A stretch of DNA of 25,248 bases, taken from a virus. Taxonomy: Duplodnaviria > Heunggongvirae > Uroviricota > Caudoviricetes. The notes below the pieces were generated by a model. The model saw only the letters and a program-made list of their open reading frames with translations. It was not told the origin of the DNA and made no database searches. The stretch is taken from IMG/VR virus record IMGVR_UViG_2700989400_000006, positions 1-25,248 of that record; one strand, written 5' to 3'. Of the stretch, positions 1 through 20,495 are shown piece by piece (position 1 is the stretch's first letter; each line of letters begins with the position of its first letter). The translations under genes and the position numbers were made by a program.

Positions 1-1344
1 TGCACCATTCCGGCGGGTATAGGTTTTATTGATGGCCTCATCCACACGCAGCAGCGTCTGTTCATCGTCGTGGCGACCCATAATAATCTGCCGGTCAATC
101 AGCCAACTTTCCTCACCCGGCCCCCATCCCCATACGCGCATTTCGTAGCGGTCCAGCTGGGAGTCGATACCGGCGGTCAGGTAAGCCACACGGTCAGGAA
201 CGGGCGCTGAATAATGCTCTTTCCGCTCTGCCATCACTTCAGCATCCGGACGTTCGCCAATTTTCGCCTCCCACGTCTCACCGAGCGTGGTGTTTACGAA
301 GGTTTTACGTTTTCCCGTATCCCCTTTCGTTTTCATCCAGTCTTTGACAATCTGCACCCAAGTGGTGAACGGGCTGTACGCCGTCCAGATGTGAAAGGTC
401 ACGCTGTCCGGCGGCTCAATCTCTTCACCGGATGACGAAAACCAGAGAATGCCATCACGGGTCCAGATCCCGGTCTTTTCGCAGATATAACGGGCATCAG
501 TAAAGTCCAGCTCCTGCTGACGGATGACGCAGGCATTATGCTCGCAGAGATAAAACACGCTGGAGGGATCATCCGGCGTCCATTTGAGGCCAAACGGCGT
601 CTCTTTATCGCCAAATTTAAGGTACTGCTCCTCCCCGCAGTGCGGGCAGGCAACATGAAAACGCATAAAATGCGGGGATTCACTGGCTGCACGCTCAATC
701 TGGCAGGTGCCTCTCACTTTGGGGGTGGAGCCACGGATGGACTTTGGCCAGACCGAGCCTTCAATACGTTTGTCGCCAAGGAACGTCGGAGAGCCTTCCT
801 GTTCAATATCCTCATCAAAGGCAGCAAGTTCATCATAACCCGCCACATCCACCGACTTTTCACGGTAGTTTTTTGCCGCTTTACCGCCCAGGCACCAGAA
901 GCCACGACCATTGGAAAAACGCTTCATGGTGAGCGTGTTATCCCGGTGCTTTTTGCCATACCACGGAGCCAGCGCCAGCAGCAACGGAATATCGCGGATG
1001 GTCGGCTCAACGTGGGTTTTCATAAAGTTCTCGGCATCACCATCCGTCGGCAACCAGATAAGTGTGTTGCGCTGCTTATGCTCTATGAAGTAGGCATAAA
1101 CACCCAACAGCATTTTGGAATAACCAACACGGGCAGACTTCACCACATTCACCTCGCGGATGTAGTCGCTGCCCATCGCATTCATGATGGCCCGCTGAAA
1201 GGGCAGTGTTTCCCAGCGCCCTTCCTGGTATGCGGATTCTTTCGGGAGATAGTAATTAGCATCCGCCCATTCAACGGGGGTCATTGGCAATGGTCTTTTC
1301 AGGACTGAGAGACCCGCCTTCACTGCCAATACGAAATTATTCAT
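1..1344 (-). CDS. Terminase large subunit (lambda gpA-like), N-terminal 448 codons; 3' end runs off the window start
   Basis: Reverse-strand frame opens with ATG at 1344-1342 and is open to position 1. Translation (MNNFVLAVKAGLSVLKRPLPMTPVEWADANYYLPKESAYQEGRWETLPFQRAIMNAMGSDYIREVNVVKSARVGYSKML...NKTYTRRNGA) matches my recollection of lambda gpA almost residue for residue after the first ~20 aa. Missing from the ORF track because no stop lies in the window. The listed plus ORF 538..1308 is its antisense shadow. Confidence 0.9.
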   Translation of the reverse strand, partial: MNNFVLAVKAGLSVLKRPLPMTPVEWADANYYLPKESAYQEGRWETLPFQRAIMNAMGSDYIREVNVVKSARVGYSKMLLGVYAYFIEHKQRNTLIWLPTDGDAENFMKTHVEPTIRDIPLLLALAPWYGKKHRDNTLTMKRFSNGRGFWCLGGKAAKNYREKSVDVAGYDELAAFDEDIEQEGSPTFLGDKRIEGSVWPKSIRGSTPKVRGTCQIERAASESPHFMRFHVACPHCGEEQYLKFGDKETPFGLKWTPDDPSSVFYLCEHNACVIRQQELDFTDARYICEKTGIWTRDGILWFSSSGEEIEPPDSVTFHIWTAYSPFTTWVQIVKDWMKTKGDTGKRKTFVNTTLGETWEAKIGERPDAEVMAERKEHYSAPVPDRVAYLTAGIDSQLDRYEMRVWGWGPGEESWLIDRQIIMGRHDDEQTLLRVDEAINKTYTRRNGA

Positions 1345-1867
1345 CTGTATTTCTGTAATACTCATCCGCAAATTCCTTCATTTTTTCAGCGGACTCAACG
1401 CATTTATTAGCCCCCTTCGCAACCAGCTCTTTTAGATAAGCCAATTGTCTGCCTGTCAATTCAGGGAATTTTCTTTGCATCGAAAGCGGAATACTGTCCA
1501 AAACAGATGCCAGTTCTCCGGATAACCGGGACAGGGCAAAAATAGAGAAAGCTGTATCAATCACCTTATGCTCTGCAACCTGGTTTTTTAACCGCTGAGC
1601 AATAGCCTGTTCTTCCGTCAGGTTAACCCTGGCCTGAAGTAGCCTTTCCTCAAGATCATTTTCACCACCTGAAGATTTCTGGTTTTGTTGACGTCGCTCG
1701 CGATCTATCTCCAGTACAGTTTTAACGTCATAGAAAACCTCTCTCCCCCGGCGCTCAACAGGAGGAACACCCCATTTATCAAATGCCTGTACTGAGATAC
1801 CGATGGAGGAGGCCATGTCGCTTTTATTCAATAAAAAGGCCACAGCCCCTCCATAAACCACCGGCAA
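1337..1867 (-). CDS. Terminase small subunit (Nu1-like)
   Basis: 176-aa ORF immediately downstream of cos on the phage strand, stop overlapping the large-subunit ATG (ATGA). C-terminal two thirds (VIDTAFSIFALSRLSGELASVLDSIPLSMQRKFPELTG) resemble lambda Nu1 (VVETAFCTFVLSRIAGEIASILDGLPLSVQRRFPELEN); N-terminus looks like the Nu1 winged-HTH. Exact start codon uncertain. Confidence 0.7.
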   Translation of the reverse strand: MPVVYGGAVAFLLNKSDMASSIGISVQAFDKWGVPPVERRGREVFYDVKTVLEIDRERRQQNQKSSGGENDLEERLLQARVNLTEEQAIAQRLKNQVAEHKVIDTAFSIFALSRLSGELASVLDSIPLSMQRKFPELTGRQLAYLKELVAKGANKCVESAEKMKEFADEYYRNTDE

Positions 1868-2048
1868 AAAAGCAATACAACAACCACGTTTTTTGTAAAA
1901 CCCTCTGATTTTACATGCTTTTTCGTATAAGAAAGATCATCAGGTTGTTGTGTTTATTTTTCTTTCTTATTACTTATCAAGTAGATATATCAAACGATAA
2001 AACAACAACCATCACCTCAAAAAAACTCGTAAATAGCGAAAACCCGCG

Positions 2049-2060
2049 AGGTCGCCGCCC
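2049..2060 (-). other. cosN cohesive-end sequence (12-nt, lambda-type) within a cos region spanning roughly 1868-2110
   Basis: Plus strand 2021-2060 is the reverse complement of GGGCGGCGACCTCGCGGGTTTTCGCTATTT, which I recall as the left end of the lambda genome; 2049-2060 = AGGTCGCCGCCC is the complement of the 12-nt cohesive end. The flank at 2061-2100 (CGGATCACCGGAAAGGACCCG) resembles the lambda right-end/cosQ side. Confidence 0.8.
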
Positions 2061-2236
2061 CGTAGCCTGCCGGATCACCGGAAAGGACCCGCAAAACCGA
2101 GAATAAGTATCAATACTATTTGTGATTTGAATGATGCACATCATTGAAACGCCATTCATCCATATACCAGCAGCAGTCGGTGTTGCACTTCGTAACTCTG
2201 TGACTACGGTTATAAAAGCATTGGCAACTTTTGCCA

Positions 2237-2274
2237 CCGGCAAGTCTTCAATGGATTTCCCCTGCCGGTTTTTT
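2237..2274 (+). terminator. Hairpin followed by T-run (CCGGCA...TGCCGG then TTTTTTATTTT)
   Basis: 6-bp stem with a ~20-nt loop followed by T6; seen on the plus strand only. Confidence 0.35.
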
Positions 2275-2370
2275 ATTTTCGTCGATGCATAACATTGCAT
2301 TTACATCAATAGCAGCTATTGTCATTAGTATGTTGCATCGATGCATGGGTGGTATTGGCGGTCTTCGCCG

Positions 2371-2405
2371 ACCGGTTCTGTGTAGCTCCCTATGACCGGT
2401 TTTTT
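2371..2405 (+). terminator. Hairpin followed by T-run (ACCGGT...ACCGGT then TTTTTATTT)
   Basis: Two copies of the palindromic hexamer ACCGGT separated by 18 nt, followed by T5; the CCGGTTTTTTATTT unit is a direct repeat of 2262-2276. Confidence 0.35.
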
Positions 2406-2620
2406 ATTTCTAAGATTACAGAAGCCCTTCACTGTATGAAGGGCTTATGTAACTCTTCTTACTTAGTAATTTTCGCACCTTCCGGTATTTCCATGAGTTG
2501 AGAAAACCTCATACTATCCGACAATAATCATCAATATACGATAAAGACATCTGACCAGATTGCAGTATTAAAAGCACTCATGCAGACTACGCCCCTCATA
2601 TCATATACAAGGGGATACTG

Positions 2621-3031
2621 ATGGCTCAGGTTGCCATTTTTAAAGAAATATTTGATCAAGTGCGGAAAGATTTAAACTGTGACCGGTTTTACTCTGAACT
2701 AAAACGCCACAATGTCTCACATTACATTTACTATTTAGCCACAGGTAATATTCACATTGTATTTGAGAGCGATAACACGGTGTTAATAAAAGGTTTCCAT
2801 GATGTTATTCATGTTAGCTTTTGCAGAGACACGCGACTTATAGAAACTTACCTTCATAAGTTGAAATCAAGAGAAATCACATTTCATGAATACAGGGTAA
2901 ATCTGGCTAAAGCTGGAGTTTTCCGATGGGTTACAAATATCCACGAACACAAAAGATATTACTATACCTTTGACAACTCATTATTGTTTACCGAAAGCAT
3001 CCAGAACACGACTCAAATTTTTCCACGCTAA
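2621..3031 (+). CDS. Hypothetical moron protein, YbcV-like (DUF1398-type as I recall)
   Basis: 136-aa ORF on the strand opposite the late genes, AT-rich, located between cos and bor as ybcV is in E. coli DLP12 (from memory). Confidence 0.5.
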
Positions 3032-3255
3032 ACCATAACGTCCGGTTTGATCCGCCTCAGTAGCCGGCACTCCCACACAGGAGTTACCAGTCGGTGCTGT
3101 GGCCATAGTTAATCTGGGTATACAGTAAAGATACAGCACATCTGGCATACTTTAATAAACATTAACAATATGAGATTTCAACTCATTGTTTAGGTTTTGT
3201 TTAAATTTCCACAAATACGATGCACCAAACTTAAAAACACAACGGGAATCACACG

Positions 3256-3549
3256 ATGAAAAAAACGCTACTCACTTTCACACTGGCGCTGCTTATCTCT
3301 GGATGTGCTCAACAGACGTTTACAGTTGAAAACAAACCTACAACAGTAACACCGAAGGAAACCATCACTCATCATTTCTTCGTTTCAGGAATTGGTCAGA
3401 AGAAAACTGTCGATGCAGCCAAAATTTGTGGTGGCGCAGATAAAGTTGTTAAAACTGAAACCCAGCAAACATTCGTAAATGGATTGCTCGGTTTTATTAC
3501 TTTAGGCATTTATACTCCGCTTGAAGCTCGGGTCTATTGCTCACAATAA
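3256..3549 (+). CDS. bor: Bor lipoprotein (serum-resistance, Iss family)
   Basis: 97-aa ORF MKKTLLTFTLALLISGCAQQTFTVENKP...ITLGIYTPLEARVYCSQ with lipobox LISGC; near-identical to my recollection of lambda Bor; transcribed opposite to the late operon as in lambda. Confidence 0.9.
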   Translation: MKKTLLTFTLALLISGCAQQTFTVENKPTTVTPKETITHHFFVSGIGQKKTVDAAKICGGADKVVKTETQQTFVNGLLGFITLGIYTPLEARVYCSQ

Positions 3550-3558
3550 TTACATGCG

Positions 3559-3586
3559 CTGCCCATCAATATGGGCAGTTTTATTT
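3559..3586 (+). terminator. Intrinsic terminator downstream of bor
   Basis: Perfect 8-bp stem CTGCCCAT/ATGGGCAG with 4-nt loop CAAT followed by TTTTATTT, 10 nt after the bor stop. Confidence 0.65.
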
Positions 3587-3631
3587 ACACTGTTAACCCC
3601 TTGGTTGTTTCAGCCGCCGGGGTTTTACTTG

Positions 3632-3880
3632 TTATTCACTGGTATGAGTACGACATCTGGCCATTTCATTCCGGGCTTTACTGTCGCCGCGACAGATGCA
3701 ACGCATCGTATCGCCGTTCAGCGTAGTGATATAAGCCTCATCCGTTTTCTCTACCTGCAAACATGAAATATTCCCGTTCCGGCAATACTCAATTTTTGCT
3801 GCCAGATGGGTATTACGCGGGTAAAACTCCATACGATACATATCCCCCCAGGACATGCACTTCCTCAACCTGACGACCAT
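3632..3880 (-). CDS. Hypothetical protein (82 aa) downstream of the endolysin; coding status uncertain
   Basis: ORF from the track; no transmembrane segment or lipobox, so not a recognisable spanin. An alternative 33-codon ORF (3813-3914) with a GGAGG Shine-Dalgarno overlaps in another frame. Confidence 0.3.
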   Translation of the reverse strand: MVVRLRKCMSWGDMYRMEFYPRNTHLAAKIEYCRNGNISCLQVEKTDEAYITTLNGDTMRCICRGDSKARNEMARCRTHTSE

Positions 3881-3946
3881 CTTCAGTTACCGTAATCTTT
3901 TTCAGTGCGTACATACGTACCTCCGTTCTTTCGTTTTTTGAACAAT

Positions 3947-3967
3947 AAAAAAGCCACCGAAGTGACC
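3947..3967 (-). terminator. Putative intrinsic terminator after the endolysin gene (minus strand)
   Basis: Minus-strand RNA would read GGUCAC-UUCG-GUGGCU (6-bp stem with two G.U pairs, UUCG tetraloop) followed by UUUUUUAUU. The same stem on the plus strand would carry A-C mismatches, so it is strand-specific. Confidence 0.45.
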
Positions 3968-3979
3968 TTTTCGATGAGT

Positions 3980-4534
3980 TTATAAACCAACGCGCTCTTT
4001 CATCCAGCCATAGACAAACGACTCGTTAGCCTCGCGTTTCTCGGCCAGCGCCAGATAACGCTCACCCTGCGTACAGTTCAGGGCTTTCACCAGTACCAGT
4101 TCGCCATCCCTGCCGCGATTTTTCAGATAAGAACGTAACGCATTAATGGTTCGCGGCCCGATCCCCCCGTCTGTAACTATGTCCGGATACAGCATTCCCT
4201 TCTGATTAAACACATTCAGCCAGCGCTGAAGCATTTTTGTGGCTACCGACGGCCCCATGTTTACCCCGGTATCACACAGTTCTGCAGCAATATCAGGAGA
4301 CAGGTTTGCCACCTGGTCAAAACGAGGTCCATACCAATAGTCTGCCTCAAGGATTTCCAGAGCCTGCCCGCGGCTCAAATCACGCATATCACCACGGTAA
4401 CCATGCGCGCGCGCCACTTTTTCAGTAATTCCCCACTTCGTCGCTCCGCCTGTATCGTCAGGATGACTGACATACCCCCCCTCTTTTCCGAGGATTTCAT
4501 CAAAAATTTCATCTCTCGATTTCATATCAGCCAC
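3980..4534 (-). CDS. Endolysin, glycoside hydrolase family 108-like with C-terminal peptidoglycan-binding domain
   Basis: 184-aa ORF; N-terminal motif EILGKEGGYVSHPDDTGGATKWGIT is the GH108 signature as I recall it; no N-terminal hydrophobic (SAR) segment; start overlaps the stop of the upstream membrane-protein gene. Confidence 0.8.
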   Translation of the reverse strand: MADMKSRDEIFDEILGKEGGYVSHPDDTGGATKWGITEKVARAHGYRGDMRDLSRGQALEILEADYWYGPRFDQVANLSPDIAAELCDTGVNMGPSVATKMLQRWLNVFNQKGMLYPDIVTDGGIGPRTINALRSYLKNRGRDGELVLVKALNCTQGERYLALAEKREANESFVYGWMKERVGL

Positions 4535-4805
4535 TCAGGAAAGCAAAAATTTTTGAAACATTACCGCGCGCACGCACTACCATGACACCAAACACCAGGT
4601 TCAGCATCACTACCAGCCAGTCTGCCGGCAACGGATGACCACAGAGATAACTTAACGGCGTTATCGCATACAACAGCATCAGACACCAGGCGCACCACGA
4701 TATCAGCGGTTTGTGTCGGGACTCTTTTCTGCGGTAGAAAAAAAGCGTCAGTACGATAACCGTACATAACGCCGCATTCAGTAATCCTGGAAGATTATTT
4801 GTCAT
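4527..4805 (-). CDS. Lysis-cassette membrane protein (holin/antiholin-like)
   Basis: Start chosen at ATG 4805 (MTNNLPGLLNAALCTVIVLTLFFYRRK...) preceded by GGAGGAGG; the track start 4823 is GTG. Two to three predicted hydrophobic helices; 8-nt overlap with the endolysin start. Confidence 0.5.
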   Translation of the reverse strand: MTNNLPGLLNAALCTVIVLTLFFYRRKESRHKPLISWCAWCLMLLYAITPLSYLCGHPLPADWLVVMLNLVFGVMVVRARGNVSKIFAFLSG

Positions 4806-5187
4806 TACCACCACCTCCTCCACGCTGACGGGAGAACAGACCGGATACCAGTGATGTAATCTCCTGCTGGTGGATGAATGACAGGACTTTTACTGAGAGC
4901 ACCGACACCAGGACCGCACACAACGCATCAACGGAAGCACTGTTAAACCCAATACGTTCCGCCATGTAACCGGCCACACCACGGGCCCCAAGCACACCAA
5001 CAATAAAGGACACCAGAAAATGTGCAGCCACACGCCAGGCTGAAAGTGTCTGCGGCATTGTTGCCACAAATAACGCACCAGCGAACGCACCAAATACAAT
5101 CCCGAAATCCGTCCCGGTAAACAGCCCGAATACCGTCGCCCCGCCGAGCGCCACAGCAGTGCCGGAACCGGATAAGGGTTCAGACAT
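4795..5187 (-). CDS. Holin-like membrane protein (Gly/Ala-rich, ~131 aa)
   Basis: Start chosen at ATG 5187 (MSEPLSGSG...) with AGGAGA 6 nt upstream rather than the track start 5217; several Gly/Ala-rich hydrophobic segments; sits at the head of the endolysin module. Confidence 0.55.
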   Translation of the reverse strand: MSEPLSGSGTAVALGGATVFGLFTGTDFGIVFGAFAGALFVATMPQTLSAWRVAAHFLVSFIVGVLGARGVAGYMAERIGFNSASVDALCAVLVSVLSVKVLSFIHQQEITSLVSGLFSRQRGGGGGNDK

Positions 5188-5272
5188 ATTTATTCTCCTG
5201 TAAATAAAAAGGACCATCAGCGGCCCTAAAAAACTTTATCAAAGGTACCCGCAGATACCTTTTGTAGGCTGT

Positions 5273-5425
5273 TTATTCAGATTTGCGAAGTAAAGGCCAG
5301 AGTAAGACCGTTACCATCGCCACCAGCACACCATCAGCCAGTACCGACATCAGCCATCCAGTGAAATCCACTGCCACTACCAGAAACAACAGGATGGCAG
5401 CCAGCACAAGGCCCGCACTTTTCAC
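5273..5425 (-). CDS. Small hydrophobic peptide (50 aa), possible membrane peptide of the lysis module
   Basis: GTG start overlapping the TGA stop of the TerB-like gene (GTGA); translation VKSAGLVLAAILLFLVVAVDFTGWLMSVLADGVLVAMVTVLLWPLLRKSE is almost entirely hydrophobic. Below the ORF-track size cut-off. Confidence 0.3.
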   Translation of the reverse strand: MKSAGLVLAAILLFLVVAVDFTGWLMSVLADGVLVAMVTVLLWPLLRKSE

Positions 5426-5847
5426 AGATACTGCTCCAGTGGTAACTGAAGCGCCTGTGCAATTTTCTTGAGCTGCGCTTCTTCATCCGGACCAATGCCA
5501 TCCTGATCAGCGATATCCAGACAGAGGCAAAGCACGTCAACCGCCTCAGTTGTCCCCGCCACATCAGCCAGCTCACGCAATGCATGCGCATTCGCACTAC
5601 GCGGTGACGCTTCATAACGGGCGCGGATATTGGCGCTCATCTGGGCAATCTCACCAGAGAACGGTGCAAAAGCAGGAAGCGCAGCAATAGTTTTCTCCAG
5701 TACTGCGATTTCTTTCGCATCGCAGGTGCCGTCGGCATATGCAATGGAATATGCGCCCCAGACGGTCGCCTCCACCGCATCACGGTTCTCCATCTTCTTC
5801 ACTTCTGTGATGGCCTTGCGGGTTTTCTTTTTGAAAATACCTAACAT
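5422..5847 (-). CDS. TerB-like (tellurite-resistance TerB fold) protein
   Basis: 141-aa ORF; C-terminal DIADQDGIGPDEEAQLKKIAQALQLP resembles the acidic helix motif of TerB-family proteins as I recall them. Confidence 0.55.
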   Translation of the reverse strand: MLGIFKKKTRKAITEVKKMENRDAVEATVWGAYSIAYADGTCDAKEIAVLEKTIAALPAFAPFSGEIAQMSANIRARYEASPRSANAHALRELADVAGTTEAVDVLCLCLDIADQDGIGPDEEAQLKKIAQALQLPLEQYL

Positions 5848-5981
5848 CGTGACTTTTCCTTTGCGTAGACGAGCCTGCGCCAGATGGTTACCAGTCCACA
5901 GTGAAAGTCACACTGACAATCCCGTAAGCACCTCCTGAAAGGCTCTGTGTTTTTGATGTGCGCCAGGTGTGGCTCAGATAC

Positions 5982-6005
5982 AAAAAAAGCTCGCCGTAGC
6001 GAGCT
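5982..6005 (-). terminator. Intrinsic terminator (minus strand) after the 92-aa gene
   Basis: Minus-strand RNA: AGCUCGC-UACG-GCGAGCU (perfect 7-bp stem) followed by UUUUUU; 24 nt downstream of the stop at 6029. Confidence 0.6.
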
Positions 6006-6028
6006 AACAGAAAATATGAAGCATGTTT

Positions 6029-6307
6029 TTATCCACGAAGTATGACGTTGAATTCATCCATACCGACACGGCTGGCTATCTCGTTGTATTCCTCAACAAG
6101 AGCCAGCAATTCTGAATTAGCAGCCATGAACTCTTCAAAAACCTTATGGATGGCATCACTGTTTAATAAAACAATGTTCTTTCCTGAAAGGCGATCAGGG
6201 GTAGAAAATATAACTGTCAAACGACTAAAGGCCCTGGCTCGTTCAGCATTAACATCCTCAATACGCTGCAACAAGCTGGAGCACCTGGAAATATCATCAA
6301 TATTCAC
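6029..6307 (-). CDS. Hypothetical protein (92 aa)
   Basis: ORF from the track, co-oriented with the late operon and followed by a strong intrinsic terminator; no recognisable motif. Confidence 0.5.
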   Translation of the reverse strand: MNIDDISRCSSLLQRIEDVNAERARAFSRLTVIFSTPDRLSGKNIVLLNSDAIHKVFEEFMAANSELLALVEEYNEIASRVGMDEFNVILRG

Positions 6308-6827
6308 TCTACTCCTGTCATCTGGATGATAATCATTTCACGGAGAGAAGCACTCAGAAGTACCACTGAAGTATAACTGGTGACCAGCTGCTTACACATC
6401 TGTTGCCATCCTGCTGATGATAAGTCGATATTAACCCTTCTGTCTATAAACGAAACAAAGGATAAGTTCAGGTTTTAAACACACTGCCAGGATAAAGTAT
6501 TGTATACAGTATAGAAGAGCGTTATTGAATGACATAAAAAACCAGACCTAATCCCTTATCCGGAAGATATATCAAATAAACGGGGAAAATGTATTAAGAT
6601 GGCGTTCCTATTCTCTCCATCCCTGATGTCCACGTAACTCGTTATAGAATCAGAACGCCATCTGAATACACAGAAAAAAAGCTGGCTTCACACCCTCCTG
6701 CATGTGTGAACGCAGTGCCCGACCACGTGCTTTCGCAACCAGCGAAAATCAGTTTTAAATACCGAAAAACGATAAGAATATATCAGAACTTCCAAGCATC
6801 CTGCTTGGCTTAGATATTAATCGAGGA

Positions 6828-7913
6828 TTAGCTCCTGTTCTTATCTAATTGTGCATTTCGCAATTTATCGTTCAGCACCAATATTTCACCAACTGTTTGT
6901 TCAAAACGCCCGGACTCAAGTTCAACCCCAATCGTGCGACGCCCCAATCCCATTGCTGCTTTTATTGTTGCCCCCGATCCCATAAAAAAATCCGCAACCA
7001 CATCCCCCGGACGACTGCTGGCAGAAATTATCTGACGCAACATATCCGCCGGTTTTTCGCAGGGATGCTTACCCGGATAATACTGTACGGGCTTATGCGT
7101 CCAGACATCCGTATAAGGAACGGCGGCCGATACAGAAAAATAACGCCGCAGAGATTTGTATTCCTCAAGCAGACTGGCATATTGCCGGTTCAGTTCACTG
7201 TATGTGCTGACCAGCAGTTGGTGTGGCGTTGCCAGCTCCCCACGCTGGTGTTTTTCTTCTGCAACACGCGCGAACAGCGCCTGCAGTTTTCTGTAATCAG
7301 CTTCGTTCGGTAACTGCCACTGACTGGTACCAAACCAGTGCGACACCATGTTTTTCTTTCCGGTGGCTTCCGCTATCTGTTTGGACGTTATTCCCAGTGA
7401 TTCACGCGCATCACGAAAGTAAAAAATCAGCGGGGCCATGACGTGTTGTTTAAGCTCGCGCTCCTTTGCCGCATAGCCGGCATTTTTTGGCTGATATGGC
7501 CACTGATAATGTTCGGCAAACAGAATGCGCTCTGTTGCCGGGAAATACGCCCGCAGGCTTTCTTTGTTGCACCCGTTCCAGCGTCCGGACGGCTTCGCCC
7601 AGATAATGTGGTTCAGCACATTAAAGCGCTCACGCATCATGATTTCGATATCAGATGCCAGGCGATGACCACAAAACAGGTAAAGACTTCCGGCAGGCTT
7701 CAGTACCCGCCAGAACTGAGCCAGACACTGGTCCAGCCATTTTAGGTAATCATCGTCGCCCTTCCACTGGTTATCCCAGCCCTCGGGCTTCACTTTAAAA
7801 TATGGCGGGTCTGTGACTATAAGATCGACAGAGTTTTCCGATAAGGTCTGGATAAATTCCAGGCAATCAGTGTTGATTAACTCACAACTGGATATTTTTA
7901 CAGTATTAGCCAT
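6828..7913 (-). CDS. DNA methyltransferase, N6-adenine/N4-cytosine class
   Basis: 361-aa ORF with the catalytic DPPY motif (LIVTDPPYF) near the N-terminus and a glycine-rich AdoMet-binding motif near the C-terminus (FFMGSGAT); this order is typical of the N6_N4 methyltransferase family. Confidence 0.9.
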   Translation of the reverse strand: MANTVKISSCELINTDCLEFIQTLSENSVDLIVTDPPYFKVKPEGWDNQWKGDDDYLKWLDQCLAQFWRVLKPAGSLYLFCGHRLASDIEIMMRERFNVLNHIIWAKPSGRWNGCNKESLRAYFPATERILFAEHYQWPYQPKNAGYAAKERELKQHVMAPLIFYFRDARESLGITSKQIAEATGKKNMVSHWFGTSQWQLPNEADYRKLQALFARVAEEKHQRGELATPHQLLVSTYSELNRQYASLLEEYKSLRRYFSVSAAVPYTDVWTHKPVQYYPGKHPCEKPADMLRQIISASSRPGDVVADFFMGSGATIKAAMGLGRRTIGVELESGRFEQTVGEILVLNDKLRNAQLDKNRS

Positions 7914-8063
7914 AGATCAATAAGCACTTCTCTGATAGGCTCATACCGCTTTTGCGCAAAGCAGATGGGCCTGAGGTTTGCTTGTGACCTCAACACATGA
8001 GCAGATGGCTGGCAGGTGCCGCTAACACCCACCAGCCGCCCATTACCACAAAGTAAAAAGCCT

Positions 8064-8261
8064 TCACTGCGGAAGGCGTCTGTAACAACCGAACTGATAA
8101 TCTGCCAGACCCGCCATCACAAGCTGGGTCAGTATTAACTGGCAGCGTTCGCGTGAAAGGTAAGTATTCTGCGCAATTTCCCCAACTGTTGCCGGTTCAG
8201 TGACGCTTAATTCATTAAACACCACTCTGGCTGTTTCGGTCATATCCTGCTGTTTTAGCAT
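8064..8261 (-). CDS. Hypothetical small protein (65 aa), possible winged-helix fold
   Basis: ORF from the track; the segment TVGEIAQNTYLSRERCQLILTQLVMAGL looks like a helix-turn-helix recognition unit. Weak evidence. Confidence 0.4.
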   Translation of the reverse strand: MLKQQDMTETARVVFNELSVTEPATVGEIAQNTYLSRERCQLILTQLVMAGLADYQFGCYRRLPQ

Positions 8262-8435
8262 GTCTTTTTCTCTTTATTGGTTAACGTGACATACCAATAA
8301 CTCTTGTCGAAAAAGCCAGCAAGCTGAAAGACCGGTATTAATAACCACCAGCACATTTTATGTACCACACCATTTTTCTGGCATAAAAAAACCGCTCAAT
8401 GCCGGGCAGTAAAAATCTTCATTACTCAAGAAATT

Positions 8436-9149
8436 TTAACGCACTCTGATAGTATTAATTTCAAAATCATTAATATTTCCGCTATTAAATATAACGAATT
8501 TCTTACCCCCACTCCTGTATGATTTCGATAACACCAGACGATCATCATAACGCGCAATAATGTAATACCATACATTCTCATAGTGGATCGCCTGATATTC
8601 CCTCTTAAACTGTGGTTTGTACCAACCGGCAATAAGAGAGAATGCCCAGAAATAAATCATAAACCCAGCCATCATGAACTCAATTCGGTGATGGCGAATA
8701 AAAGACATTTCCGAAAAACATTTGACTGAAACAAGTCTTCTTCCAGACCTGACAAAAAGCGTGATTGTAAAGGCAGCAAGAATGCAGAAAATCAGTACAT
8801 CTGGCTCAACATGCTGATGAATTACCGAAAACTCCAGAACAGGTGGAATAAAAAGCAGCAATATCGCGAGAAAAAGCCGGATAAAACTCAAATTTTGTAT
8901 ATTGCGCTTTTGTTTTATGCCCAAAAAGAAAACAATACCAACTCCCCATCCAATAAGGAATATAACGATAACTGTCACAGCATAAAACAAACTTCGTGCA
9001 ACATCATCGACACCAGCCCCGACAACCCACCATGGAAAGCCATAGTAAAATGAAGTACCCCATCCATAGAAATAAGCGCTTCCCCATCCTAGACAGCCCA
9101 TATAAGCAACAAAAAGTGAAGAGTTTCTGAGCAGAGCACTGTCATTCAT
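8436..9149 (-). CDS. Integral membrane protein (237 aa) encoded on an AT-rich moron
   Basis: Four to five hydrophobic, Trp/Tyr/Phe-rich segments in the first ~170 aa followed by a soluble C-terminal tail; first gene downstream of the tR'-like terminator; hand counts on sampled 60-nt lines give ~27% G+C. Confidence 0.6.
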   Translation of the reverse strand: MNDSALLRNSSLFVAYMGCLGWGSAYFYGWGTSFYYGFPWWVVGAGVDDVARSLFYAVTVIVIFLIGWGVGIVFFLGIKQKRNIQNLSFIRLFLAILLLFIPPVLEFSVIHQHVEPDVLIFCILAAFTITLFVRSGRRLVSVKCFSEMSFIRHHRIEFMMAGFMIYFWAFSLIAGWYKPQFKREYQAIHYENVWYYIIARYDDRLVLSKSYRSGGKKFVIFNSGNINDFEINTIRVR

Positions 9150-9291
9150 AGTAACACCATTAACAACTCAAAAATATCAACACATATTACATAACAAATT
9201 GGATTCCATGCAGTCAAGGGGCGTCATTGATGGAGAAAGTATTGGCACAATCGTCATCACGTTTAATGTCTATGCCATTTTTTGGGGGGAT

Positions 9292-11899: not shown

Positions 11900-12226
11900 A
11901 ACGCTTATTATTAAAAGCGATTAGATAAATTAAATTTTAATGTTATGCAAATTTGCCAGATCACCATAATATCTCGTTTGAAACCACCGAAATAACAACC
12001 ATATCAATATTGATTATGTTAAAGCGAGTAAATATGGAAAACAACAAATCTGCACATTACGCTCCTTTTTTATCTGTGATACTTTTTGTTTTATGCTGTG
12101 TGTGGGCATTATTTTTATAAAAATATTTACAGATAAAATAAACCCGCCGAATCAAGTTAAGTGTGGGTGCATTGAGGATGCCTGACTCATCAGAGGTGGC
12201 GAGGGATTTCTCCCTCGCCTGGTCTC

Positions 12227-12382
12227 TTACTCCTCAGGTTCGTAAGCTGTGAAGACAGCGACCTCCGTCTGGCCGGTTCGGATTCGTACCTCGCAGAGGT
12301 CTTTCCTCGTTACCAGTGCCGTCACTATGACGGTTAAACAGATGACGATCAGGGCGATTAACATCGCCTTTTGCTGCTTCAT
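12227..12382 (-). CDS. hokD: Hok/Gef-family type I toxin (51 aa)
   Basis: MKQQKAMLIALIVICLTVIVTALVTRKDLCEVRIRTGQTEVAVFTAYEPEE matches my recollection of E. coli HokD (RelF). A perfect 9-bp hairpin (12198-12219) follows the stop, consistent with the folded 3' end of hok-type mRNAs. Confidence 0.9.
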   Translation of the reverse strand: MKQQKAMLIALIVICLTVIVTALVTRKDLCEVRIRTGQTEVAVFTAYEPEE

Positions 12383-12439
12383 AGCCTGCTTCTCCTTGCC
12401 TTTCGGCACGTAAGAGGCTAACCTAGATTTGCCGTTCAT
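12227..12439 (-). CDS. Mok-like upstream reading frame containing hok (70 aa, same frame)
   Basis: In-frame N-terminal extension MNGKSRLASYVPKGKEKQA preceding the Hok methionine, as in chromosomal mokC/hokC pairs (from memory). Confidence 0.5.
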   Translation of the reverse strand: MNGKSRLASYVPKGKEKQAMKQQKAMLIALIVICLTVIVTALVTRKDLCEVRIRTGQTEVAVFTAYEPEE

Positions 12440-12949
12440 AGATTGAGCCTCAGATTAATGTTAAACGTCTTGCAGGACGCGTAATGTTAACTGGGGCTTT
12501 TCTCTATCTGCCTTTGGTGTTCATGCCTGAGGCAGATAGCCTCAAGCACCCGCAGCAATTCTACTTAACTCCCGTCACCTCGCCAATATAAAATCAATCA
12601 GAAAGGCGATCCGTAAGAACAACAGCAAGACAATAAATTGCCATTACAGCCGCAATAGCTAGCGCACATTTGAGAACCAGCACGACAACCTCCTGTATTG
12701 GACGTACACCAATTCTGATAAATATGAGGCTGTCTCATCATTGATTCAATATAACTATTGGGTATAGTTTCTGTGATTTTGTTCTGTAGAAATGGAACAC
12801 AACAACCAGTCACCACCAGCACTTCTTTAAATACGCCAAGTCCGACGCAAGCTAACCTTCTAGTCCGCTTTGAGCGAAGAGCGGACATTGCTAACAGCAT
12901 CCTGTGTGAATCATTACGATCAAATCGATGACTAGATAAGTACAAACCG

Positions 12950-12994: not shown

Positions 12995-13651
12995 TCACAA
13001 AATTCTGAGAGTTTCTAAGATGGATAAAAGTGTTGGAAGCTGACTCTCTCTCACACGGAATCTACCCGTCCTAGATAATTCCGTTTCAATTCCGTTAACG
13101 AAGAAATGTACGGAATCAAAAACGGCCGAACTATTCATGTATTTATTCTGATAAATTTCTTGGAGATTCTTTGAGCTTACTATTTTTGTCTTTGCTAAAG
13201 TAAAAGGATCAACAGAGATATTAGATAGAGACATGGATTTTATCTTGATGTCAAAGCCCTCAGAAAGACCATTTACAATTTTTCTCAGATCAAATTCTAC
13301 TGGTCTCAAGCCACTATCTTCACCAAATAGTTTTTGCACCATAGTATAAGGCACTTTCATACTTAATGGAGGATTAGTGGCATATAGTATGATTTTTTTC
13401 CCTTGTCTGACGCCAAAGTCCACATTTAAGTAAGTTGCTATTTCAACCTCTGAACGCTCGCCATTAGCATATTCTAAGCTTTGCTTGCTAATGCTTCTCA
13501 TGGTAAATCTTAGTTTAAGCACTTCAGAGTTATTAATGATTTGAAAACCATATCCTTTATCTTCATCATAGAGGTTGTCATTTACTTTATGTAATAACTC
13601 ACTTTTAGTTATATCCTTTTCTGCTTTATAAATTTTTACCTTTATCATCAT
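12995..13651 (-). CDS. Cassette gene C: uncharacterized protein (~218 aa), third gene of the AT-rich three-gene operon
   Basis: Start chosen at ATG 13651 (MMIKVKIYKAEKD...) with AGGAGG 6 nt upstream, overlapping the TGA of gene B as ATGA; the track start 13678 is TTG. No motif I recognise. Confidence 0.75.
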   Translation of the reverse strand: MMIKVKIYKAEKDITKSELLHKVNDNLYDEDKGYGFQIINNSEVLKLRFTMRSISKQSLEYANGERSEVEIATYLNVDFGVRQGKKIILYATNPPLSMKVPYTMVQKLFGEDSGLRPVEFDLRKIVNGLSEGFDIKIKSMSLSNISVDPFTLAKTKIVSSKNLQEIYQNKYMNSSAVFDSVHFFVNGIETELSRTGRFRVRESQLPTLLSILETLRIL

Positions 13652-14895
13652 CCAGCCTCCTGATTCAAAGTCTCGCAAGACATAGCTTTCGTTACTGGGT
13701 ATCGCTTGGTATGCTCTTCGATAATAAAGTCATTAATCAAAAATATTTTATCTTCTAATTGTTTCATGACTTGATCAAAGTCTGCGTCACTGAGTTTTTC
13801 TCTCTCTGCGGATGCAGAGTTGCTTTCTTTGTATAACGCTCTGAATTTTATATTTTTCCCAAGATATTTATCATCGAAACTAAGTTCAAAAGTTATAGTA
13901 TGATTCTTAACTACTGAGGAAAATGACTTCCATCGAATTAAGCTTCGATAAAACCCATCACTGCACAGTTCCTTAATTTGAGGTGCGTTCACTAATGATA
14001 GGCCATCATACGCGGCATTGTTAATGTTAAAAGTTAGGTTTTCATCATCGTCAGATGCCATTTCCTGATTATTAATGTCATCATCATTTTCGTTATCTGT
14101 AGAAGGTGAAATCTTGTTTAATAACTCTTGTGTTTCTTCGTTATTATTTCCTTCGAGATTATCTCCATTAATATCCAGAGATGTTTTTATTCTGCTTACT
14201 CTAACCTTTTCAAGACCAGCATATTCAAGTCCTGTTTTTTTATAATTTCCATCAAAATCATAAAGATGAACAGCAAAAATATTCCTAAGATCTGTATCAA
14301 CGATACTTGATAAATCTATTTCGTTGACAACTATGTTGTTACAAACTGTTGATGAATATGTATCAATTATTTGCTTGAGAATTTCTGAAATGCGTGGCGT
14401 ATAGTTATATCTTACTGAAACATATCCTTTTTTTACTATAAAAACTATACTCCCACTGTACAATTTTTTCTGCTGAAACTTACCCCTTCTAAAATCAAAC
14501 TCAGTATAATCAATAGATATATGATAGGTTTGCAAGCCTGAGTAATGATCAATTTTCTCATGCCCTAGCAACTTGGGTCTATTTTCTTTCACTTTGTTTA
14601 CAACGTCATAGAGTTTCTCTATATCAAATTCTTCATATATACGTTTTACTGAGAAGACGTCTTGGCTGGGTTTGGTTGCCAGTTTATCTTGTACTTCTCT
14701 GATGTGATTATATGAAAATGGCAGGTCTGATAATTTTTCTATCAATACCTCTTTTGATAAGTTAGATGGGAAAATTATCCCTCTATTGAAGGCGATTTTC
14801 CTTAATGTAACATCTGTGATTTTTGCACTGTTAGAGTGGAGGGCGGTATAAATGTCACTTTCGTTTGAAAACAACGTAGCTTGATATTTATTCAT
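13648..14895 (-). CDS. Cassette gene B: uncharacterized protein (415 aa) with a central acidic low-complexity linker
   Basis: ATG 14895 lies 10 nt after the gene A stop with AGGAG in between. Residues ~240-285 (NNNEETQELLNKISPSTDNENDDDINNQEMASDDDENL) form an Asn/Asp/Glu-rich linker between two halves. No Walker A/B or other motif I recognise. Confidence 0.8.
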   Translation of the reverse strand: MNKYQATLFSNESDIYTALHSNSAKITDVTLRKIAFNRGIIFPSNLSKEVLIEKLSDLPFSYNHIREVQDKLATKPSQDVFSVKRIYEEFDIEKLYDVVNKVKENRPKLLGHEKIDHYSGLQTYHISIDYTEFDFRRGKFQQKKLYSGSIVFIVKKGYVSVRYNYTPRISEILKQIIDTYSSTVCNNIVVNEIDLSSIVDTDLRNIFAVHLYDFDGNYKKTGLEYAGLEKVRVSRIKTSLDINGDNLEGNNNEETQELLNKISPSTDNENDDDINNQEMASDDDENLTFNINNAAYDGLSLVNAPQIKELCSDGFYRSLIRWKSFSSVVKNHTITFELSFDDKYLGKNIKFRALYKESNSASAEREKLSDADFDQVMKQLEDKIFLINDFIIEEHTKRYPVTKAMSCETLNQEAG

Positions 14896-14905
14896 GTCAT
14901 ACTCC

Positions 14906-15997
14906 TTATGAAAAGTGACATTTTCTATTCACCTGCTTGCTGGCAACCTGGTACTCAAATATAGATAGCTTTTGATTAACAAAAGGAATGGATACTATTT
15001 TTTCCTTTAACGTTTCTATATGAGATTGAGTGAAAGAATATATTCCTATGTAATCATTAATGGCGGATTGCAAATGAATGCTTGAGTGTGATGAGAACGG
15101 AGTTATAACAAATATTTTGTTAAATTGATTGAGTAATTGATAGTTAAATATATACTCTAAAAGAAATATAAAGTGGTTACTGGAATCAATCTCTTCCTTC
15201 CAGAATATATTCAATATTTTATTTCTTATTCTATCGCCACCATCATTTCTAATATATTCGTGTTCATATGAGTAAAAAATCATCCCAGATGTTATCATTT
15301 CAATTGTGGCTGGAAGGATTTTCCCTTTCGTTGCTATTTTATTATGTTTGTCAGGGTAAAAATATGTACAGTTCTCTATCTCAGGAATTTTTTGCCATAA
15401 CATATTTGTTTCTTGTGTTACTTTGTCAGTAATTCCTCTTCTAGTCTCGATGTGTTCTGTAACATCTAGTAAAAATCTGATCATAGTTGGGTCAAAAACG
15501 GCAATCACAGAGTTCTCTGGAAAATCATAACTTGCTGTGGCTGCTCCATTTAATTTCTCAATTAAATCAGAGTCATATTTATTGTCATGATTATATATAA
15601 AAAGTAGGCCGTTAACTTGATATTTCTCATTTGTGCTGTCAACAAATAGACGCCGCCACTCAGGACTTCTTGGCGCGCAAGCTACCTGTTGTGATAAACT
15701 TCGTACAGTGTTCAATATTGATTTTGTACCGTCAAGCGTGCTGGCACAATAAGATTTTAAATCTGTTTGTATATACTGAGTTATATCTGAATAAGGATCT
15801 TTATATTTGAAGACTACATCCGTAGGATGAGTTTTTTTTGGGTTTTCAGATAAAAGTTGTTTAGCGTTTAGATGAGATCTCAAACAACAGTCCCAACTTA
15901 TATCCGTTGTATTTTGGGTTTTCCAGCCTAACTCATCAAAAATTCTACTGGAAATGATACCTGCAATCTCATCAATATTCTTAGTTTCGCCGCCCAC
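14906..15997 (-). CDS. Cassette gene A: uncharacterized protein (363 aa), first gene of the operon
   Basis: GTG start at 15997 preceded by GGAGGA; no in-frame ATG upstream. The N-terminal ~90 aa carry a pattern compatible with, but not diagnostic of, a PD-(D/E)xK nuclease core (FDE ... HPTDVVF ... IQTDLK). Confidence 0.7.
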   Translation of the reverse strand: MGGETKNIDEIAGIISSRIFDELGWKTQNTTDISWDCCLRSHLNAKQLLSENPKKTHPTDVVFKYKDPYSDITQYIQTDLKSYCASTLDGTKSILNTVRSLSQQVACAPRSPEWRRLFVDSTNEKYQVNGLLFIYNHDNKYDSDLIEKLNGAATASYDFPENSVIAVFDPTMIRFLLDVTEHIETRRGITDKVTQETNMLWQKIPEIENCTYFYPDKHNKIATKGKILPATIEMITSGMIFYSYEHEYIRNDGGDRIRNKILNIFWKEEIDSSNHFIFLLEYIFNYQLLNQFNKIFVITPFSSHSSIHLQSAINDYIGIYSFTQSHIETLKEKIVSIPFVNQKLSIFEYQVASKQVNRKCHFS

Positions 15998-19916: not shown

Positions 19917-20437
19917 TCCATCCATGTTTACGGGATAGATAAAGATATATCGCTTCGAAACCATCGACATGGTTTGGATAGCCTTCCTCAGCAGCAAGGT
20001 TATCCCCAAAACATTCAAGAATATAATTTAAACGCGCTGTTTAATAATGAATCTTCCAGCGAGTCTGATTTAGTTTGCTGACCATTTTAATTTTATCCTC
20101 CATTGAGGTTACTGGTTGAGAATGGAGACCACACGTGACAGCGCGTGGTCGTGCGCCGGACACGGATAAGAATCCGGCACAAACAGTTTACTGAAAGGAT
20201 ATATCCCTGAAAAGTCAGGGCATAACGCGAAAGCGCACGGCGAAGTCATTCCTCCCTTTGTTGTGTACTACTGACATCTTCGTCTGTGCGCTTCCGGTTG
20301 TGGCAATCCGCGAAATGGCGCGGCGGTAAGTATGGCGGGGTTATTCCTTCCCCGTTGAGGACACCGGGTTGTCAGGTTGACCATACGCTTAAGTGGCAAC
20401 CCCGCTGCAACGCCCTCTGTTATCAATTTTCTGGTGA

Positions 20438-20495
20438 CGTTTGGCGGTATCAGTTTTACTCCGTGACTGCTCTGCCGCCCTTTTTAAAGTGAATT
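20438..20495 (+). ncRNA. dicF: DicF small RNA (ftsZ-targeting sRNA of the dicB operon)
   Basis: TTTCTGGTGACGTTTGGCGGTATCAGTTTTACTCCGTGACTGCTCTGCCGCCC followed by TTTTT matches the 53-nt DicF sequence as I recall it, including the terminal GC-rich stem and U-tail; it sits upstream of dicB as in Qin. Confidence 0.8.

Follow-up and report, generated by a model that had tools for sequence, protein, structure and literature searches.

The locus described here raises the question of whether a small toxin gene carried by a virus sequence is a complete hok/mok/sok type I toxin-antitoxin module or only what is left of one. The sequence (hereafter the window) is the whole stretch of 25,248 nucleotides (nt) of the IMG/VR record IMGVR_UViG_2700989400_000006, assigned to the Caudoviricetes, and the toxin gene lies near its middle, on the minus strand. 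A preliminary description, made from the letters of the sequence, had read it as a hok-type type I toxin locus. This reading was upheld by the protein family, the Rfam leader model, the near-identity to hokD, the identity to the hokW-sokW system of Sakai prophage 5 (Sp5) and the conserved RNA pairings, which all agree. The sequence evidence indicates that the locus is very probably a complete hokD/hokW-type hok/mok/sok module situated in the early-right (replication-to-Q) region of an Escherichia coli lambdoid prophage. The hokD/hokW group is already widespread, annotated and experimentally characterised, and the window locus is nothing new in kind.

The toxin and its overlapping frame were defined by the following features, in which ORF stands for open reading frame and SD for Shine-Dalgarno sequence.

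12227 to 12382, minus strand: hok (HokD) toxin ORF, 51 codons plus TAA, matched by Pfam PF01848 and PHROG 251.
12227 to 12439, minus strand: mok ORF, 70 codons, ATG start, in frame with hok, from the ORF list and the homologues.
12448 to 12451, minus strand: mok SD, GAGG, 8 nt ahead of the mok ATG, from the sequence and the homologues.
12392 to 12397, minus strand: hok SD, AAGGAG, overlapping the Sok -35 of the opposite strand; CAAGGAG is conserved in the alignment.

A Hok-family ORF nested in a longer mok-like ORF of the same frame had been proposed, and it was found as a protein of 51 amino acids within one of 70. The Hok protein starting at the ATG at 12382 is MKQQKAMLIALIVICLTVIVTALVTRKDLCEVRIRTGQTEVAVFTAYEPEE. 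The full Pfam model PF01848 (HOK_GEF) matched residues 25-66 of the 70-residue ORF with E=3e-23, and the Hok ORF matched PHROG 251, annotated as "MokW-like host killing", with 7.7e-33. A chance ORF, or a small membrane peptide other than Hok, was considered as a candidate and rejected, given the E-values of the matches in Pfam and Rfam. The protein shows 100% identity to the HokD that adjoins relE in the K-12-type locus and is closely related to HokW. The HokD protein has been reported to be toxic.

For comparison, 53 Hok loci were gathered from Escherichia, Shigella, Kluyvera, Citrobacter, Pseudocitrobacter, Photorhabdus, Pantoea, Erwinia and others. An alignment of 44 distinct units was built from the transcription start to the fold-back inhibition element (fbi), including Sp5 hokW and the IncFII R1-type copy; one hokC copy (L014), lacking the fbi region, was excluded from it. 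The mok ATG was kept in 43 of these 44 homologues, with a spacer of 6-10 nt from GAGG, while the frame that follows it varied. Thirty units, the common case, had mok in the frame of hok; eight had it in the +1 frame, and in five it was only 19 codons long and stopped at the hok start. The in-frame group includes the window locus, hokW, hokC and the IncFII copy. The retention of the mok ATG and SD while the frame varies fits a leader ORF that would act through translational coupling, with translation mattering rather than the peptide.

Additionally, a UACGAA motif was invariant in 44/44 homologues; in the window, the UACG (the Tyr47 codon plus G) lies at 12241-12244 on the minus strand. A preprint has described TadA adenosine-to-inosine editing of the hokC, hokD and hokE mRNAs, recoding Tyr to Cys, as in hokB.

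The identity of the locus was then supported at the nucleotide level. The 601 bases around it matched 4763 of 5426 complete E. coli genomes, and the best match was annotated "hokD: type I toxin-antitoxin system toxin HokD"; the exact allele of the window was absent from the public data searched, where the best whole-locus identity was 99.0%. Phage records label the same element HokD, MokW or gef homologue. The identity to hokW-sokW of Sp5 (phage VT2-Sakai) was about 93% across the whole unit. All the core features of the hok/mok/sok family that can be examined in silico were present in the window locus, and the accessory terminator fails. As for orthology to hokD (relF), 51/51 residues are identical and the gene sits upstream of DUF968-rusA-Q in a Qin/Rac-like lambdoid prophage. 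The window holds the early and lysis parts of this prophage, with an integrase, an excisionase, an exonuclease, a DicB homologue, DicF, a CI-like repressor, cro, ydaT, the replication genes and DUF977, followed by a cargo region, hok, DUF968, rusA, Q, holins, an endolysin and a terminase. In practical terms, the analysis adds mok, Sok and the mRNA elements to the map, each placed within a few bases, where the RefSeq annotation of the relatives names the toxin ORF only. Beyond correct annotation, its significance is small.

A complete module should carry its own transcription unit, and the following features were found upstream of and across the toxin gene.

12558 to 12586, minus strand: hok/mok promoter, with -35 TTGGCG (12586-12581), a 17-nt spacer and -10 TAGAAT (12563-12558), 9/12 matches in the promoter scan.
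12135 to 12551, minus strand: predicted full-length hok mRNA, about 417 nt, 3' end approximate, from fold and homology.
12377 to 12551, minus strand: hok mRNA leader, matching positions 1-157 of 157 of the Rfam model RF01794 ("sok") with 111.7 bits (gathering score 59) and E = 5.6e-25.

This promoter was one of only two promoter-like sites called by the scan in the region, and it was also called in a 99%-identical locus (L001). The predicted mRNA start is G12551, and both the Rfam model and the cross-genus homology begin at this same base. Homology across the 44 units spans 12551 to 12165 and ends abruptly after GCACCC. The 422-nt stretch 12130-12551 folded with a minimum free energy of -163.2 kcal/mol (z = -6.87 against shuffles), its 5' end paired to its 3' end. 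The structured leader proposed earlier for 12440-12590 was confirmed over 12551-12440, within this strongly folded stretch, while its remainder, 12552-12590, holds the hok promoter and is not leader.

The Rfam search covered all families. The RF01794 model opens at the 5' end of the hok mRNA (GGGUGCUUGA...) and closes three bases beyond the hok AUG; despite its name, it is in effect a model of the hok mRNA leader. Since the match lies on the hok-sense strand, it confirms the family and leaves the ends of Sok undefined. A covariance-model search had been put forward in the preliminary description as a check on a Sok-like RNA; it succeeded on the hok strand, and the plus strand gave only 18 bits, a sub-threshold and mis-registered hit at 12493-12617.

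The orientation of the gene admits another explanation of its expression. The strand of hok is also that of cro, the replication genes, DUF968, rusA and Q, and hok could be a passenger expressed mainly by read-through of the early-right operon from pR, with the Sok/mok circuitry secondary, in the way of the K-12 hokD/relF, which is third in relBEF. The K-12-type hokD lies directly after relE with no leader of its own, and in Sp5 HokW appears only once RecA-dependent induction has occurred (PMC8621323), both of which would suit such an arrangement. Nevertheless, the window gene has its own promoter, and its predicted start coincides with the 5' edge of cross-genus conservation, with flanking genes that differ between homologues. 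Moreover, the Sp5 hokW mRNA is already present before induction and does not rise afterwards, and it is Sok that disappears (PMC8621323). We considered expression mainly as a passenger to be very improbable.

Returning to the reading of a complete, self-regulated module, the regulatory elements of the hok mRNA were located as follows.

12540 to 12551, minus strand: tac (translational activator element), GGGUGCUUGAGG, paired to fbi in the fold of the full-length RNA and to ucb once the 3' end is removed.
12528 to 12544, minus strand: 5' metastable hairpin UGAGGC-UAUCU-GCCUCA, from covariation, with a putative role taken from plasmid R1.
12504 to 12539, minus strand: conserved 5' stem (helix 2), CUAUCUGCCU / AGGCAGAUAG, 99.4% paired, two pairs double-changed.
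12493 to 12499, minus strand: ucb / anti-SD, AAGCCCC, whose partner in the folds is the mok SD region before truncation of the RNA and tac after it.
12414 to 12419, minus strand: dcb, AGCCUC, predicted partner of the mok SD in the truncated mRNA, from the truncated-mRNA fold.
12165 to 12177, minus strand: fbi, CCUCAAUGCACCC, forming a 12-bp duplex with tac at -19.8 kcal/mol.

The RNAalifold consensus of the 44 units closes the molecule by pairing of its 5' and 3' ends. In this 65-pair consensus, 96.4% of the cells were paired, versus 41-46% when the partners were slid by 1-3 columns; 22 pairs were double-changed, and none of 500 shuffles reached the observed values. In the tac-fbi duplex, the alignment pair 4/427 was U-A in 29 units, C-G in 11 and U-G in two. 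When the duplex was examined free of the alignment (first 14 nt against the last 17 nt), it was about 12 bp long in most units and at least 9 bp in 44/44, with a mean of -20.0 kcal/mol versus -9.3 with shuffled fbi. The hairpin reported earlier as TGAGGC-AGATA-GCCTCA near 12536-12552 does exist, about 8 nt lower, at 12528-12544; 95.5% of its cells were paired, 3/6 pairs were compensatory and 0/500 shuffles reached these values. Helix 3, in which the mok SD is buried against ucb, had five double-changed pairs, and a long-range helix (helix 6) between the hok start region and the 3' part of the coding sequence covaried as well. Hence, four structural elements of the hok mRNA, namely tac-fbi, the mok-SD hairpin, the metastable hairpin and the 3' stem, were supported by compensatory changes.

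The full-length RNA of the window was predicted to fold with tac/fbi and ucb/SD-mok. When the 3' end was removed to 12180-12195, the minimum free energy fold switched to tac/ucb (12551-12544 with 12499-12493) and SD-mok/dcb (12451-12446 with 12419-12414), with a hairpin around the mok start. As modelled, this folding switch reproduces the full-length-to-truncated scheme of R1 (PMC9841398). The tac-ucb complementarity was present in 99.3% of the cells and is invariant, and the five outer pairs of the six-pair SD/dcb stem were conserved in 43/44 homologues; the inner target hairpin aligned poorly, with 69% of the cells paired. In R1, mutations at G4/C5/T6 (in tac) and at A70 abolish toxicity (PMC9841398). 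These four positions align to identical bases in the window, where the ucb is aligned to A70/G71/C72 of R1.

The antitoxin RNA was placed on the opposite strand.

12396 to 12424, plus strand: Sok promoter, with -35 TTGCCT (12396-12401), a 17-nt spacer and -10 TAACCT (12419-12424), placed by identity to the sokW promoter.
12431 to 12503, plus strand: predicted Sok antisense RNA, about 71-75 nt, from fold and covariation, both ends approximate.

The promoter stretch is base-for-base identical to the sokW promoter region. In sokW, the -10 was mutated from TAACCT to GAGCCG (primer YO-421), and the promoter-less construct lost antitoxin activity (PMC8621323). The ends of Sok were set by a start about 7 nt past the -10 (near 12431) and by the T run at 12498-12505, and a complementarity of 71 nt has been reported for sokW (PMC8621323). 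An antisense RNA on the plus strand around 12385-12470 had been suggested; this interval takes in the Sok promoter and only the first (5') half of Sok, which is predicted to extend to about 12503. The RNA was predicted to fold, at -26.5 to -28 kcal/mol, into one long hairpin (12445-12499) preceded by 14 nt of unpaired 5' tail and followed by a U-rich stretch. The hairpin is kept in 25 distinct homologues, with 5/13 pairs double-changed, and several of its U-G pairs correspond to C-A mismatches on the hok strand. These strand-specific pairs are evidence for selection on the plus-strand RNA itself. A generic promoter/terminator scan called neither the Sok promoter nor a Sok terminator, because the -10 is too far from consensus for the scan rules and the hairpin, long and interrupted, lies outside them as well; Sok was therefore placed through the identity to sokW and the covariation.

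A further observation concerns the Sok 5' tail, which corresponds to mok codons 2-5 (12426-12437). Among eight close hokD/hokW-type units, its mean entropy was 0.80 bits versus 0.19 overall, and it was one of the two most variable stretches, the other being the loop and upper part of the 3' stem. The tail also differed between copies of the same genome, such as L003/L004/L011 in one E. coli and L006/L008/L012 in one Shigella. This variation could give Sok/target specificity among co-resident copies.

The 3' region of the locus holds two hairpins with quite different standing.

12198 to 12219, minus strand: 3' stem-loop, GGCGAGGGA-GAAA-UCCCUCGCC (helix 11), 4/8 pairs double-changed and 96% of the cells paired.
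12133 to 12158, minus strand: degenerate intrinsic terminator AACUUGA-UUCG-GCGGGUU followed by UAUUUUAU, at -3.0 kcal/mol.

The perfect 9-bp stem noticed earlier after the stop codon (GGCGAGGGA / TCCCTCGCC, with a 4-nt loop) lies exactly at 12198-12219, 8 nt past the TAA, and covaries. Its use as a terminator was rejected: no T-run follows it, conserved sequence including fbi runs about 35 nt further, and the relatives have a separate terminator past fbi. It probably protects the 3'-processed mRNA, in keeping with R1, where mutations in the equivalent stem abolish toxicity, an effect that the authors attribute to greater susceptibility to 3'-to-5' exoRNases (PMC9841398).

The leader and coding sequence of the window are identical to those of strain 90-9281, which carries an allele annotated as intact hokD. 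Below about 12190, the locus is identical to a second type, present in six E. coli genomes and four IMG/VR contigs. The allele is thus a mosaic of two known types, which points to recombination within the locus. Three substitutions are clustered in the 5' arm of the terminator stem. The locus keeps its stop codon, 3' stem and fbi intact.

Several observations weigh against a complete and active module. The terminator stem is down to six pairs, two of them G-U, with -3.0 kcal/mol versus -11.8 in the L001-type allele, and the terminator scan called a terminator in L001 and none in the window. In the two second-type genomes examined (loci L061 and L062), the hok TAA is changed to TTA and the gene is annotated as a pseudogene; because the window has its 3' segment in common with these stop-less relatives, selection may have been relaxed over part of the locus. 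The Sok -10 (TAACCT) keeps only 3/6 consensus positions and fails the generic scan. The tac/ucb and SD/dcb columns are invariant, and covariation therefore neither supports nor refutes these pairings. A U-turn (YUNR) motif in the Sok-target loop is a feature of the R1 system, and the target loop of the window, ACGGCAAA, itself only predicted, was by eye without a clear YUNR, the nearest being CUAG in the 3' arm. Finally, the chromosomal loci hokA, hokB and hokC, tested earlier, gave no post-segregational killing and no rifampicin activation.

From these facts an inactive relic could be imagined, that is, a locus that looks complete and is silent or decaying like most of the chromosomal hok loci of K-12, its Hok never made natively. 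The degenerate terminator, the 3' segment from a lineage with an annotated pseudogene, the earlier negative results with hokA, hokB and hokC, and the state of the K-12 hokD itself, a leaderless remnant beside relBE, would all fit. On the contrary, the toxin ORF, the mok ATG and SD, both promoters, tac, fbi, ucb, dcb and the 3' stem are intact and match the consensus of the 44 homologues. The leader and coding sequence are shared with an allele annotated as intact, as noted above, the nearly identical hokW-sokW is active, and the weakened terminator lies outside the regulatory core, with fbi retained. An inactive relic is unlikely in our estimation. The weakened terminator is nonetheless a real defect of this allele, though not in a core defining feature, and it is the main reason for doubting full activity.

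Under the reading of a complete hok/mok/sok module, a mechanism can be outlined by homology with hok/sok of plasmid R1 and hokW-sokW of Sp5; from these two systems we infer transcription, processing, Sok binding, coupling, toxicity and biological role for the window locus. The promoter at 12586-12558 would drive an hok mRNA of about 417 nt from about 12551. In the nascent transcript, the 5' end would be held in the metastable hairpin (12544-12528). In the finished RNA, tac (12551-12540) would pair with fbi (12177-12165) and the mok ribosome binding site GAGG (12451-12448) would be buried against ucb (12499-12493), so that the locked full-length RNA would allow neither translation nor Sok binding. 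Slow 3' trimming to the GC-rich stem-loop at 12219-12198 would strip fbi; tac/ucb and mok SD/dcb (12419-12414) would then pair and form the Sok-target hairpin around the mok start. The unstable Sok, of about 71-75 nt, made from the plus-strand promoter 12396-12424 with a start near 12431, would bind this target region and block translation of mok and hence, by translational coupling, of hok, while RNase III would cut the duplex. Were the supply of Sok to end, for instance because the prophage is induced, transcription is shut off or the element is lost, translation of Mok would follow, and after it that of the 51-residue Hok; Hok would enter the inner membrane, the cell being killed or lysed. 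When the prophage is induced, the module may hasten lysis in the manner of hokW-sokW, the role to which the direct data on a close relative point; alternatively, it may serve as a prophage stabiliser or to counter superinfecting phage.

Two connected ideas can be put forward. Since hok is sense to the early-right operon, transcription that is antiterminated upon induction would run head-on into the Sok promoter, and early-right transcription could silence Sok by transcriptional interference or titration. If true, such read-through silencing would link RecA-dependent induction to the unexplained rapid loss of sokW in Sp5, with the caveat that hokW-sokW of Sp5 sits elsewhere in its phage than the hok of the window. 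The second idea is that the diversity of mok codons 2-5 limits hok/sok cross-talk between prophage copies. Taken jointly, the two are speculative, and we would give them only a slim chance of being right.

Three co-oriented minus-strand genes lie directly upstream of hok, over 12995-15997 (ORFs 14906-15997, 13648-14895 and 12995-13678). They matched, in this order, PADLOC Hp1 (7.6e-41), Hp2 (9.6e-11) and Hp3 (4.2e-11), a trio that we take to make up the "3HP" anti-phage system known from P2/P4 hotspots. No Pfam domains were detected in the three, and their PHROG matches were only to families of unknown function. Other cargo was seen at the same site in relatives: DUF5677 in strain 90-9281, and a zeta-toxin gene with hypothetical genes in MB07081 and MFDS1022581. 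As the cargo differs among relatives, the replication-to-hok interval looks like a variable defence/moron slot.

Closer to hok, a 29-codon ORF with a GTG start was found at 12594-12683 on the minus strand, with a strong AGGAGG 5 nt upstream; its product, MLVLKCALAIAAVMAIYCLAVVLTDRLSD, would be a hydrophobic peptide. The ORF stops 8 nt short of the hok -35 and is unannotated in the relatives, and it gave no Pfam, PHROG or PADLOC match. Six close relatives keep it, the only changes being T-to-M and R-to-H; six are too few to judge coding, and it could be a small membrane protein or a chance frame. Furthermore, the DicF small RNA was matched at full length at 20429-20480 on the plus strand (76.7 bits), with a DicB homologue and other Qin-like genes annotated adjacent to it in a relative.

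The hok/mok/sok (parB) locus of plasmid R1 and its IncFII relatives have the same order of elements as the window: tac, metastable hairpin, ucb, mok SD, mok, dcb, hok SD, hok, 3' stem and fbi. Sok is likewise antisense to the mok start, and tac-fbi is kept through compensatory changes. The R1-type copies are much more diverged than those of the hokD/hokW type, and the window, Sp5 hokW and the IncFII copy gave 76% mean column identity in a three-way alignment; for the Hok and HokW proteins, 44% identity has been reported (PMC8621323). The Sok hairpin of the window is 18 nt longer than the R1 type, and the Sok -10 is TAACCT in the window and TATCCT in R1. Because the window element is on a prophage and that of R1 on a plasmid, post-segregational plasmid stabilisation is not an obvious role for it.

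On the chromosome, hokC (gef)/mokC/sokC has the same set of elements, an in-frame mok (MLNTCRVPLTDRKVKEKRA-MKQHK...) and a 12-bp tac-fbi duplex. It differs in being about 75% identical, in its shorter Sok hairpin without the 18-nt apical extension, and in lying in the core chromosome and not in a prophage.

The hokD (relF) of the Qin cryptic prophage of K-12 encodes the same 51-residue protein and shares the 3' stem and fbi of the window. The prophage of the window carries a Qin-like gene set (DicF, the position of the DicB homologue, DUF968, RusA and Q), all on the hok strand save DicF and DicB. In the K-12-type locus, relE ends 75 bp before hok, and homology to the window begins just upstream of the hok SD; it lacks the leader, the mok start and the target region and retains, of the upstream part, only the Sok promoter region. 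As this locus is leaderless, the window holds the complete form of which the K-12 hokD/relF is a remnant.

Other leaderless copies were seen among the gathered loci. Those of L005 (E. coli) and L026 (Kluyvera) lie directly after relE, the relE of L042 is decayed, and L044 (Photorhabdus) has unrelated upstream DNA; all four retain the 3' stem and fbi. Tandem complete units about 180-270 bp apart were found in L027 (271-654 and 833-1217; an Enterobacteriaceae gut isolate) and in L035 (856-1211 and 1485-1829; Photorhabdus temperata), the second copy of the latter having an internal deletion in Hok. E. coli-like hokD sequences, with 90-95% nucleotide identity, were also present in L016 (Acinetobacter idrijaensis, 275 bp), L021 (Xanthomonas pisi, 431 bp) and L054, a contig of a Candidatus Scatousia metagenome-assembled genome; the first two are very short contigs, all three assemblies are non-enterobacterial, and these sequences are most likely assembly contamination.

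The closest characterised system is hokW-sokW of Sp5, the Stx2 phage VT2-Sakai of E. coli O157:H7 (Takada et al. 2021, PMC8621323), which is, like the window element, borne by a lambdoid prophage. Both units measure 387 nt from the transcription start to fbi, with an identical Sok promoter and hok SD region, the same extended Sok hairpin and the same in-frame 70-codon mok. They differ at the C-terminus of Hok (...FTAYEPEE in the window versus ...FVDYESEK in HokW), at mok codons 2-5 (NGKS versus LNTC) and in the terminator region. Their positions differ too, hokW-sokW lying near the end of the VT2-Sakai record among ORFs for hypothetical proteins (orf71-orf80), whereas the window locus lies between the replication genes and DUF968/rusA/Q. 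For hokW-sokW, the toxin, the antitoxin RNA, the dependence on RNase III and Hfq, and the response to induction have been demonstrated experimentally, and its deletion lowered phage release about two-fold (PMC8621323).

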